The notes beneath the pieces were generated by a model that was not told the DNA's origin, did not search any database, and saw only the letters and a list, made by a program, of their open reading frames with translations. DNA of 64,000 nt from Escherichia coli (GTDB taxonomy: Bacteria; Pseudomonadota; Gammaproteobacteria; Enterobacterales; Enterobacteriaceae), in the NCBI RefSeq assembly GCF_013122565.1, contig NZ_CP053258.1; one strand, 5' to 3'. A program made the position numbers and the translations under genes. This document shows, piece after piece, positions 9,173-11,583 of this stretch. Positions within the stretch are counted from its first letter, which is position 1. Every line of letters begins with the position of its first letter.

Positions 9173-10054
9173 ATGACACGACAAAAAGCAACGCTCATAG
9201 GGCTAATAGCGATCGTCCTGTGGAGCACGATGGTAGGATTGATTCGCGGTGTCAGTGAGGGGCTCGGCCCGGTCGGCGGTGCAGCTGCTATCTATTCATT
9301 AAGCGGGCTGCTGTTAATCTTCACAGTTGGATTTCCGCGTATTCGGCAAATCCCGAAAGGCTATTTGCTCGCCGGGAGTCTGTTATTCGTCAGCTATGAA
9401 ATCTGTCTGGCGCTTTCATTAGGGTATGCGGCGACCCGTCATCAGGCGATTGAAGTGGGTATGGTGAACTATCTATGGCCCAGCCTGACAATTCTCTTTG
9501 CCATTCTGTTTAATGGTCAGAAAACCAACTGGCTGATTGTACCAGGATTATTATTAGCCCTCGTCGGCGTCTGCTGGGTGCTAGGCGGTGACAATGGGTT
9601 ACATTATGATGAAATCATCAATAATATCACCACCAGTCCATTGAGTTATTTCCTGGCGTTTATTGGTGCGTTTATCTGGGCAGCCTATTGCACAGTAACG
9701 AATAAATACGCACGCGGATTTAATGGAATTACCGTTTTTGTCCTGCTAACGGGAGCAAGTCTGTGGGTTTACTATTTTCTCACGCCACAACCAGAAATGG
9801 TATTTAGCACGCCCGTCATGATTAAACTCATCTCTGCGGCATTTACCTTAGGATTTGCTTATGCTGCATGGAATGTCGGTATATTGCATGGCAACGTCAC
9901 TATTATGGCGGTAGGTTCGTATTTTACGCCCGTACTTTCCTCAGCGCTTGCAGCCGTGCTGCTCAGCGCCCCGCTGTCGTTCTCGTTCTGGCAAGGCGCG
10001 CTAATGGTCTGCGGCGGTTCCCTGCTCTGCTGGCTGGCGACACGTCGTGGTTAA
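9173..10054 (+). CDS. yddG: Aromatic amino acid exporter, DMT superfamily (293 aa)
   Basis: Track ORF 293 aa, polytopic membrane protein; position downstream of fdnG as in K-12. Confidence 0.88.
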   Translation: MTRQKATLIGLIAIVLWSTMVGLIRGVSEGLGPVGGAAAIYSLSGLLLIFTVGFPRIRQIPKGYLLAGSLLFVSYEICLALSLGYAATRHQAIEVGMVNYLWPSLTILFAILFNGQKTNWLIVPGLLLALVGVCWVLGGDNGLHYDEIINNITTSPLSYFLAFIGAFIWAAYCTVTNKYARGFNGITVFVLLTGASLWVYYFLTPQPEMVFSTPVMIKLISAAFTLGFAYAAWNVGILHGNVTIMAVGSYFTPVLSSALAAVLLSAPLSFSFWQGALMVCGGSLLCWLATRRG

Positions 10055-10313
10055 AATAACTGCCGGGTCTACGGCCCGGCAGTTAATCAGATAAATTCCG
10101 ACAATATTAAAAAAATAAACTTCAAATACCAGTAATTCACCTTATATCTCATTTCGACTTCGATCACATATCGATAAATAATATTATTTCATCTATTTTT
10201 CTCATTGTTTTTAATCACCGTTCTATTTTAAAAACAGTATGTCATTTATAAATGACGCCGTTTAAAATTCGTTTAGAAAATACGTTTAACGATAATTAAA
10301 AGGATTCTGTTAA

Positions 10314-11414
10314 ATGAAATTAAAAATAGTTGCGGTGGTTGTAACTGGTTTGTTAGCTGCGAACGTAGCACACGCTGCCGAAGTCTATAACAAGGATGGT
10401 AATAAACTCGACCTTTATGGCAAGGTTACCGCTCTACGTTATTTTACTGATGATAAGCGTGACGATGGTGATAAAACTTATGCCCGTCTCGGCTTTAAAG
10501 GAGAAACGCAAATCAATGATCAAATAGTTGGTTTTGGTCACTGGGAATATGATTTTAAAGGCTATAACGATGAAGCCAACGGCTCGCGCGGCAACAAGAC
10601 CCGTCTGGCCTATGCAGGTTTAAAAATTAGTGATTTTGGCTCTCTGGACTATGGTCGTAACTACGGTGTCGGCTATGACATTGGTTCATGGACCGATATG
10701 TTGCCAGAATTTGGTGGCGATACCTGGAGTCAGAAAGATGTCTTCATGACATACCGTACCACCGGTGTAGCAACCTATCGCAACTACGATTTCTTTGGCT
10801 TAATTGAAGGGCTGAACTTTGCCGCGCAATATCAAGGCAAAAATGAACGTACTGACAACAGTCATCTTTATGGTGCTGACTACACGCGCGCCAACGGTGA
10901 CGGTTTCGGTATCTCCTCAACTTATGTTTATGATGGCTTTGGTATCGGTGCGGTATATACCAAATCTGATCGGACAAATGCGCAGGAAAGAGCCGCTGCT
11001 AATCCTCTCAATGCCTCCGGTAAGAATGCAGAACTGTGGGCTACAGGTATAAAATATGGTGCCAACAACATCTACTTTGCAGCTAATTACGCTGAAACAT
11101 TAAACATGACCACCTATGGCGATGGTTATATCTCGAACAAAGCACAAAGTTTTGAAGTGGTGGCGCAATATCAATTCGACTTCGGCTTGCGCCCATCACT
11201 CGCTTACCTGAAATCGAAAGGCAGAGATCTGGGCCGCTACGGCGACCAGGACATGATTGAGTATATCGACGTTGGTGCGACGTATTTCTTCAACAAAAAT
11301 ATGTCGACCTATGTTGATTATAAAATCAACCTGATTGATGAAAGCGATTTTACCCGTGCCGTAGATATTCGCACCGATAACATCGTCGCTACGGGCATTA
11401 CCTATCAGTTCTAA
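10314..11414 (+). CDS. yddL: General porin, OmpC/OmpF/PhoE family (366 aa), intact
   Basis: Signal peptide [27 protein letters not shown], porin-typical GxxYxF beta-strand periodicity and C-terminal ...GITYQF. Symbol is by position; this locus is a pseudogene in K-12 as I recall. Confidence 0.85.
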
Positions 11415-11426
11415 CATCCTCTCCTG

Positions 11427-11452
11427 ACCAGCCCTTCTCTGGGCTGGTTTTT
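11427..11452 (+). terminator. Rho-independent terminator after porin gene
   Basis: Stem accagccc / gggctggt with loop ttctct, followed by TTTTT. Confidence 0.6.
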
Positions 11453-11583
11453 GATGTAAGTGCTGCTGTATGAATCCTTAAGTAAAAATGAGCAATTTTT
11501 GATATTTCTGAACATTCACCTCAATTAATATTATTCCATACCCTCCGGGGACATCTTACTATAATATTTATTGATGAGTGATT

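Follow-up and report, generated by a model that had tools for sequence, protein, structure and literature searches.

An intact OmpD-type porin gene beside yddG in Escherichia coli, probably of low or conditional expression, and its truncated remnant yddL in K-12

We describe a porin gene at positions 10314-11414 (plus strand) of a 64,000-nucleotide stretch of the Escherichia coli contig NZ_CP053258.1 (assembly GCF_013122565.1), a stretch referred to below as the window. The gene lies immediately downstream of yddG, and we find that it is very probably an intact E. coli orthologue of Salmonella ompD, coding for a general porin that most strains of the species have lost and that appears to be expressed at a low level or conditionally in E. 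coli. Three lines of evidence carry this reading: the position and relationships of the gene, the manner in which it has been deleted from or retained in other E. coli genomes, and a codon usage that is quite different from that of its Salmonella counterpart.

Integrity and identity of the porin

The gene is an uninterrupted open reading frame (ORF) of 366 codons that runs from an ATG to a TAA with zero internal stops, and its product matches the Pfam profile Porin_1 (PF00267) from end to end (residues 27-366 against profile positions 1-337 of 337, E = 3e-133), with a score of 444.8 bits where the curated cutoff is 23.7. Residues 22-366 align over their full length with the solved structures of OmpK36, OmpC, OmpF and PhoE (E 1e-119 to 1e-127), with no gaps of consequence relative to OmpK36 and OmpC (E ~1e-126), and many solved porins share at least 60% full-length identity with the product; by homology to these, the protein is predicted to be a 16-stranded beta-barrel with an L3 constriction loop. 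The first 21 codons (10314..10376, plus strand) encode an N-terminal Sec signal peptide, which alignment identifies as an OmpD-type leader cleaved between AHA and AEVYNK. The remainder (10377..11414, plus strand) encodes a mature general porin of 345 amino acids plus the stop codon, covered by Porin_1 at full length and ending ...TYQF, that is, in the aromatic residue (Phe) associated with recognition by the BAM machinery. The L3 constriction-loop motif PEFGGD (residues 131-136; 10704..10721, plus strand) consists of invariant alignment columns from P131 to D136, and K37, R58, R97, R148, D128 and E132 of the eyelet all fall in invariant columns of the porin alignment; we take these six to correspond to OmpF K16, R42, R82, R132, D113 and E117, the basic ladder and the acidic residues of L3. 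A preliminary description of this stretch had already proposed an intact porin of 366 amino acids with a signal peptide and a C-terminal aromatic residue, and in this it agrees with the ORF, profile and alignment evidence; neither an internal stop nor a frameshift, which it had named beforehand as fatal to the proposal, appears on realignment.

The same description assigned the protein to the OmpC family, and RefSeq goes further, naming it 'ompC: porin OmpC' because the query passes a broad subfamily model in the PGAP pipeline (NCBIfam NF007841 'porin OmpC', 494.7 bits, narrowly over the cutoff of 484); it falls below the NCBIfam equivalog cutoffs for both OmpF and PhoE. Read at face value, this score and the presence of the ompC annotation in more than 1,000 genomes would make the gene another copy, or an allele, of OmpC, an explanation that we consider scarcely credible. 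The protein is 62% identical to E. coli OmpC, 60% to OmpF, 59% to PhoE and 62% to OmpN, compared with 72-74% to Salmonella 'porin OmpD', 77% to a Citrobacter koseri porin and ~67% to the prophage porins NmpC and Lc, so that the 62% shared with OmpC stands against 74-77% shared with OmpD orthologues. Moreover, a neighbour-joining tree built on mature-protein columns separates OmpC, OmpN, PhoE and OmpF from all OmpD/NmpC/Lc-type porins, the query among them, in 200 of 200 bootstraps, while the prophage porins (NmpC, Lc) form a group of their own in 191 of 200. The leader resembles those of Salmonella and Citrobacter OmpD (MKLKLVAVAVTSLLAAG..), unlike the leaders of OmpC, OmpF and PhoE, and the true E. 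coli ompC sits elsewhere, beside micF and rcsD, whereas the query gene sits beside yddG. We therefore reject a second OmpC on position and phylogeny, and place the gene in the OmpD/NmpC/Lc clade and not, as first described, in the OmpC family. In the alignments that the description had recommended as its check, K-12 yddL turns out to be a truncated copy of this gene (see below), and OmpC, OmpF, PhoE and OmpN are relatives at 59-62% identity.

The PGAP label has a consequence of its own, as the genomes that carry it presumably hold two 'ompC' genes, a trap for pangenome studies and for analyses of porin loss. A separate observation concerns the nearest database protein beyond E. coli (P0001, on an ENA metagenome contig of 2.1 kb; 85% identity), which joins an OmpC-like signal peptide (MKRKVLAMLVPALLVAGAANA) to an OmpD-like mature part and is perhaps a porin of recombinant or chimeric origin.

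The genomic position of the gene points in the same direction as its sequence. Upstream of it lies yddG, encoding an aromatic amino acid exporter of the DMT type (9173..10054, plus strand; NCBIfam equivalog YddG, 472.5 bits, cutoff 194), and the porin ORF begins 259 bp downstream of this gene, in a slot bounded by fdnGHI on one side and narU-narZ on the other. The order fdnI-fdnH-fdnG (minus strand), yddG (plus), porin (plus) ... narU-narZ is shared by the window, Salmonella (record L003) and C. koseri (L004, L005). The slot is ordered in the same way in E. albertii (L018), where the porin is split by IS1, and a yddG-adjacent porin is also found in another Escherichia lineage (L019, L020). Between the window and Salmonella, DNA identity is 71% for the porin, 76% for yddG and 78% for the narU-narZ region; between the window and E. 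albertii, the values are 82% for the porin and 85% for yddG. Because synteny is conserved and the divergence of the porin tracks that of its core-gene flanks, and with OmpD as the closest named porin, we conclude from these comparisons that this gene and Salmonella ompD are positional orthologues that descend from a common ancestor.

Two of these genomes show the locus in altered form. In E. albertii CP034213.1 (L018, 6137-8014), IS1 divides the porin into an N-terminal piece of 85 amino acids and a remainder of 337 amino acids, and a second IS1 and an Rhs/VgrG cluster follow downstream. In L019 and L020 (5001-6116), yddG is 95% identical to that of the window, but the adjacent gene encodes a different porin of the OmpD clade (P0105; 65% amino acid and 69% nucleotide identity), followed by a GFA gene, as in Salmonella, and then by a ring-hydroxylating dioxygenase cluster.

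Deletion and retention in E. coli

The K-12 lineage retains only the beginning of the gene. The K-12 derivative MC4100 (L002) is collinear with the window as far as 10597, resumes at 12130-12461, and resumes again from 13103. The first missing segment measures 1,532 bp (10598..12129, no strand assigned), has CGGCAA microhomology at its junction, and contains codons 94-366 of the porin, the intergenic DNA behind it and the 5' portion of the first of two leucine-rich repeat (LRR) genes that follow the porin. A 12-nt repeat, CATTGATTTATC, which the two LRR genes share, brackets the second gap (12462-13102), by which these genes are fused. On the yddG-proximal side, K-12 and the window share 98% identity over 1,598 bp, a stretch that takes in the promoter region and codons 1-93, and K-12 yddL (L002, 6260-6535) is an ORF of 96 amino acids made up of 93 porin codons followed by KNL. 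This length agrees with PMC9976479, in which yddL is treated as a possible small beta-barrel protein with a speculated role in osmotic stress. The preliminary description had given yddL as disrupted in K-12, and codons 1-93 are indeed all that is left there. We conclude from the alignments that the yddL-yddK-yddJ arrangement of K-12 is the product of two deletions, and that yddL (b1472), catalogued as an 'uncharacterised protein' or pseudogene, is a truncated ompD porin gene, such that the K-12 remnant of ompD is yddL and not nmpC.

A different deletion is seen in the B2 strain UM146, in which yddG directly abuts narU and window positions 10136-14287, comprising the porin and both LRR genes, are absent. 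By these comparisons the gene is ancestral and has been lost twice by deletion within E. coli; what had first been called an 'extra' porin is an ancestral gene in the conserved yddG slot that other strains have deleted.

This history differs from a published one. Okeke et al. 2011 (PMC3079680) described a 1,548-bp 'O-island 62' (z2239-z2242) between yddG and narU in EDL933, pointed out the similarity of yddL to the 5' end of z2239, the first ORF of that island, and read K-12 as carrying an island disrupted by insertion. Under this scenario, the porin and LRR genes would be a recently imported island that was disrupted later in K-12, and several features are in keeping with it: GC content is low in the porin gene (44.5%) and lower in the LRR genes (34-35%), compared with 48.6% for the whole window, the genes are patchily distributed among E. 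coli, and one other Escherichia lineage carries a different porin allele in this slot. However, a porin stands in the yddG-adjacent slot of Salmonella, C. koseri and E. albertii, its divergence matches that of the core flanks, and the K-12 and B2 states are simple deletions with microhomology and not insertions. Past the porin, Salmonella and Citrobacter carry GFA-smvA-smvR and E. coli carries the LRR genes; since only the LRR genes replace GFA-smvA-smvR, at most that part was inserted. Since the junctions show K-12 to be a deletion derivative, O-island 62, which corresponds to the 1,532-bp segment missing from K-12-type genomes, is a K-12 deletion and not an insertion in enterohaemorrhagic E. 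coli. We consequently regard recent import of the porin as quite improbable, the shared slot and flank-like divergence having largely ruled it out for this gene.

The distribution of the locus was surveyed in 5,426 complete E. coli genomes, 99% of which fall into one of three states. The K-12 deletion junction is the commonest (3,138 genomes, 57.8%), the yddG-narU junction of B2 type occurs in 1,119 (20.6%), and the intact type, defined by presence of the 3' part of the gene (10598-11414), occurs in 1,118 (20.6%; 1,101 at 80% coverage or more). When 60 evenly spaced intact-type records were inspected, 58 (~97%) had an intact coding sequence (CDS) annotated. Carriers in the collection include O157:H7, O145 and PCN033, and the literature adds enteroaggregative E. 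coli (EAEC) 042, UMN026, IAI39, SMS-3-5, O55:H7 and some Shigella (PMC3079680, PMC2808357).

A rival reading is that the gene is a non-functional relic on its way to becoming a pseudogene, intact by chance in the present strain. Most E. coli have indeed lost it, disrupted copies exist in H7, H88 and H90, the E. albertii copy is interrupted by IS1, and the codon bias of a major porin and the small-RNA sites have been lost (see below). Yet seven diverse alleles (from the window, LHM10-1, O157:H7, AST85, PCN033, echidna strain A1 and FDAARGOS_497) are all 1,101 nt long with zero indels, and although they diverge at synonymous sites by pairwise dS of up to 0.18, their ratio of non-synonymous to synonymous divergence (dN/dS) is 0.03-0.12, which indicates strong purifying selection and a gene maintained for its function. 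In addition, ~97% of the sampled carriers have kept the porin intact, whereas the neighbouring LRR genes are often split or truncated in the same strains, and the set of pore-lining residues is complete. On selection, intact-CDS share and pore residues we reject a decaying relic, which strikes us as very improbable; the porin gene is real and probably functional.

Codon usage, upstream region and small-RNA sites

If the gene has been kept for use, its codons nonetheless give no sign of heavy use. We compared the frequency of optimal codons (Fop, computed with the classical optimal-codon set) and the effective number of codons (ENC). The E. coli gene has values of 0.56-0.58 and 51-55, the query itself scoring 0.58 and 51, close to the background of the window (median over its long ORFs, 0.55 and 48) and to phoE, the porin of phosphate starvation (0.56 and 46), and far from E. 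coli ompC (0.92 and 29) and ompF (0.81 and 37). Its orthologues resemble the latter pair (Salmonella ompD, 0.83 and 40; C. koseri, 0.87 and 38.5). The codon adaptation of a major porin, which is a trait of Salmonella ompD and not a criterion of orthology, is therefore lacking in the E. coli gene, and such background-like, phoE-like usage speaks against a major-porin role in E. coli and for weak or conditional expression. Conditional expression had been suggested in the preliminary description from the composition of the upstream DNA; it is now backed by different evidence, namely the contrast between background codon bias here and that of Salmonella ompD.

The upstream intergenic region, taken to hold the promoter and 5' untranslated region (UTR), is 259 bp long with 28.6% GC (10055..10313, plus strand; from GC content and alignment), as the preliminary description had noted in calling it long and AT-rich. 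About 150 nt before the ATG (from ~10160) align with the DNA upstream of Salmonella and C. koseri ompD, and this stretch includes a Shine-Dalgarno sequence, an A/U-rich leader and an invariant GATCACA block. Homology places a transcription start site (TSS) near G10241, with weak -35 and -10 elements, and thereby predicts an A/U-rich 5' UTR of ~73 nt (10241..10313, plus strand) with the Shine-Dalgarno sequence AAGGA at 10300-10304; the 5' UTR of Salmonella ompD is 69 nt (derived from PMC4911921). Further upstream is a possible CRP-like site, TTCGA-N6-TCACA (10153..10168, plus strand), whose right half-site matches perfectly and is also present in Salmonella and C. koseri. The TCACA half-site is centred ~80 nt upstream of the predicted TSS, plausibly a class I CRP position, and cAMP-CRP reportedly controls Salmonella ompD. 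A consensus-type promoter, ATGTCA-18-TAAAAT, also occurs at 10239-10268 (plus strand), within the 5' UTR that homology predicts; Salmonella lacks a good match to it, and it could yield a shorter, alternative E. coli leader. A scan of the region for consensus promoters returned 8 sites where 5.3 were expected, a result that is uninformative alone.

A rival account of low expression is that the gene is a cryptic porin silenced by H-NS, its AT-rich promoter coated and off in the laboratory until an anti-silencer or environmental cue intervenes. H-NS-bound DNA is refractory to Tn5. The upstream region, at 28.6% GC, lies at the edge of a tract of ~4 kb with 30-45% GC that consists mostly of LRR genes, background codon bias is what one would expect of a weakly expressed gene, and yddL is among 81 K-12 genes classed as 'essential only by TraDIS' (transposon-directed insertion-site sequencing), in other words genes with few insertions (PMC5821084, which makes no H-NS claim for the low-insertion yddL). 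Low Tn5 insertion in what is a dispensable stub suggests that the region is refractory to insertion, a pattern that H-NS coating often produces and that would fit H-NS occupancy here. However, the upstream DNA of highly expressed porins is similar in composition (32.9% GC for ompC, 32.4% for ompF and 33.2% for Salmonella ompD), with 30.4% for ompN and 37.6% for phoE, so that AT-richness, which had been offered as a mark of H-NS-silenced loci, is unspecific where porin upstream DNA generally has 30-38% GC. Nor is the nucleation motif informative: TCGATAAATT, reportedly the H-NS nucleation sequence, has a 9/10 match at 10171-10180, but such matches are unenriched, with 12 in the window against 7.0 +/- 2.7 expected. 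Strong purifying selection, moreover, implies that the gene is used at least sometimes. Involvement of H-NS in silencing this porin is plausible, yet we consider it less likely than not, and the same goes for full silencing of a cryptic gene.

Regulation after transcription may have changed as well. Mapped sites for MicC, RybB and SdsR lie near the start of the ompD coding sequence (PMC3333887, PMC4911921), and we computed duplex energies on short fragments, site by site, at the published positions. The homologue of the MicC site (CDS +67..+78, codons 23-26; 10380..10391, plus strand; location per PMC3333887) carries two mismatches: Salmonella and C. koseri have GAGGTATATAAC, which forms a 12-bp duplex of -13.5 kcal/mol, whereas the window and O157 have GAAGTCTATAAC, at -4.3 kcal/mol, the mismatches falling at synonymous positions. 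The RybB seed duplex weakens from -18.3 kcal/mol in Salmonella and -17.4 in C. koseri to -13.7 in E. coli, and that of SdsR from -30.1 and -25.4, respectively, to -15.4. Unconstrained RNAduplex runs of MicC, RybB and SdsR against the whole leader were noisy and gave E. coli no better pairing than shuffled sequences. These energies suggest that the E. coli gene may be partly out of the MicC/RybB/SdsR regulon.

Drawing these strands together, we propose the following scheme for an OmpD orthologue of low or conditional expression. A Sec signal peptide would export the porin for insertion into the outer membrane, where, as its superfamily (OmpC/OmpF/PhoE) predicts, it would form a trimeric, non-specific diffusion channel through whose L3-constricted pore small hydrophilic solutes pass passively. 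The gene occupies an ancestral slot beside yddG, from which a deletion of K-12/A/B1 type left the 93-codon stub yddL and one of B2 type took the porin and both LRR genes; about one fifth of strains, including O157:H7 and EAEC 042, have kept the porin under purifying selection. The E. coli copy appears to serve as a low-abundance or conditional accessory porin, probably under looser control by MicC, RybB and SdsR. A bolder version, which we put forward only tentatively, holds that OmpD has been demoted from a major porin policed by small RNAs, as in Salmonella and Citrobacter, to a low-abundance, conditional back-up channel that has left the MicC and SdsR regulons and is kept by selection in lineages of phylogroup D/E/F type.

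Several points weigh against the proposal. The branching order inside the OmpD/NmpC/Lc group is weak (65 of 200 bootstraps), and the porin has 44.5% GC where its Salmonella and Citrobacter orthologues have 50%. The porin of L019 and L020, at 69% nucleotide identity beside a yddG at 95%, suggests that allelic replacement has occurred at the locus at least once, so the window allele need not have descended strictly vertically. With respect to expression, codon bias is only a proxy, and we found no transcript, protein or channel measurements for this gene in the literature. The pairing energies rest on short fragments, and RybB can still pair with the E. coli gene through an 8-bp seed that includes two G-U pairs.

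Neighbouring features, prior knowledge and known relatives

Downstream of the porin, 12 nt past its stop codon, lies a hairpin resembling an intrinsic terminator (11426..11449, plus strand), with a 9-bp stem of which 6 pairs are GC, followed by TTTTGATG; possessing a terminator hairpin of its own, the gene looks monocistronic. Scanning 9900-11700 against Rfam gave nothing of relevance, the single match being a chance hit to a miRNA (E = 0.35). The LRR genes that the preliminary description had placed next to the porin are ORFs at 11578-12843 (421 amino acids) and 12906-14159 (417 amino acids), both on the plus strand and both intact, and they correspond to the EspR2'/EspR1 type III effector-candidate genes of O157. 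They match SlrP/SspH2-type LRR effector models weakly; elsewhere, one copy is truncated in several strains, and K-12 has the pair as a frameshifted fusion (yddK/yddJ). The locus tag ECs2074 refers to the neighbouring EspR2' gene and not to the porin.

The porin gene itself has already been annotated and described, and is an ordinary feature that involves no new kind of biology. Chaudhuri et al. 2010 (PMC2808357) gave Ec042-1601 of EAEC 042 as 'an apparently functional ompD', paired with the nmpC pseudogene of K-12, and Fröhlich et al. 2012 took prophage nmpC to be the ompD-like gene of E. coli; indeed, it is usually prophage NmpC or Lc that the literature cites as E. coli 'OmpD', and in the literature searched we found no paper in which yddL and ompD appear together. 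What is added here is that yddL is the remnant of ompD and O-island 62 a K-12 deletion, along with how often each of the three locus states occurs, and the evidence for purifying selection combined with loss of major-porin codon bias and a predicted weakening of small-RNA sites.

These clarifications of yddL and O-island 62 clear up a recurring confusion in annotation. Studies of E. coli permeability, phage receptors and vaccine antigens usually cover OmpC and OmpF, and sometimes PhoE, OmpN and NmpC, with K-12 as reference, while about one fifth of sequenced E. coli hold an intact, selected OmpD orthologue that RefSeq calls 'OmpC' and for which the small-RNA literature favours nmpC. The distribution of the gene also offers a ready-made contrast of E. 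coli lineages with and without OmpD. If the tentative account of a demoted back-up channel is correct, O157:H7, EAEC 042 and several multidrug-resistant clones may possess an overlooked third route of antibiotic entry, phage or colicin receptor and surface antigen, hidden by the customary identification of E. coli 'OmpD' as prophage nmpC.

Among its relatives, the gene is best compared with Salmonella enterica OmpD (alias NmpC; STM1572), the major general porin whose gene stands beside yddG. The two share their slot, leader type and pore residues, and ~85 nt before the ATG, together with the Shine-Dalgarno sequence, are conserved between them. However, the Salmonella gene has the codon bias of a major porin and intact small-RNA sites, as opposed to background bias and sites predicted to be weaker in E. 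coli, its intergenic distance from yddG is 524 bp as opposed to 259 bp in the window, and it is followed by GFA-smvA-smvR where E. coli has two LRR (EspR-like) genes. Within E. coli, K-12 yddL is the same gene as the window porin without codons 94-366, and z2239 of EDL933 and Ec042-1601 of EAEC 042 belong to the same locus; the O157 allele is intact, with 97.8-98.2% DNA identity and 4-8 non-synonymous changes, and differs in its surroundings in that EspR2' is split, whereas both LRR genes are intact in the window. NmpC (of DLP12) and Lc (of phage PA-2) fall in the same OmpD/NmpC/Lc clade but are encoded by lambdoid prophages; their signal peptide (MKKLTVAISAVAAS...) differs, and they are paralogues or xenologues and not the positional orthologue. 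Finally, E. coli OmpC, OmpF, PhoE and OmpN share the Porin_1 fold and the constriction residues of the window porin, but belong to another clade and to other loci.

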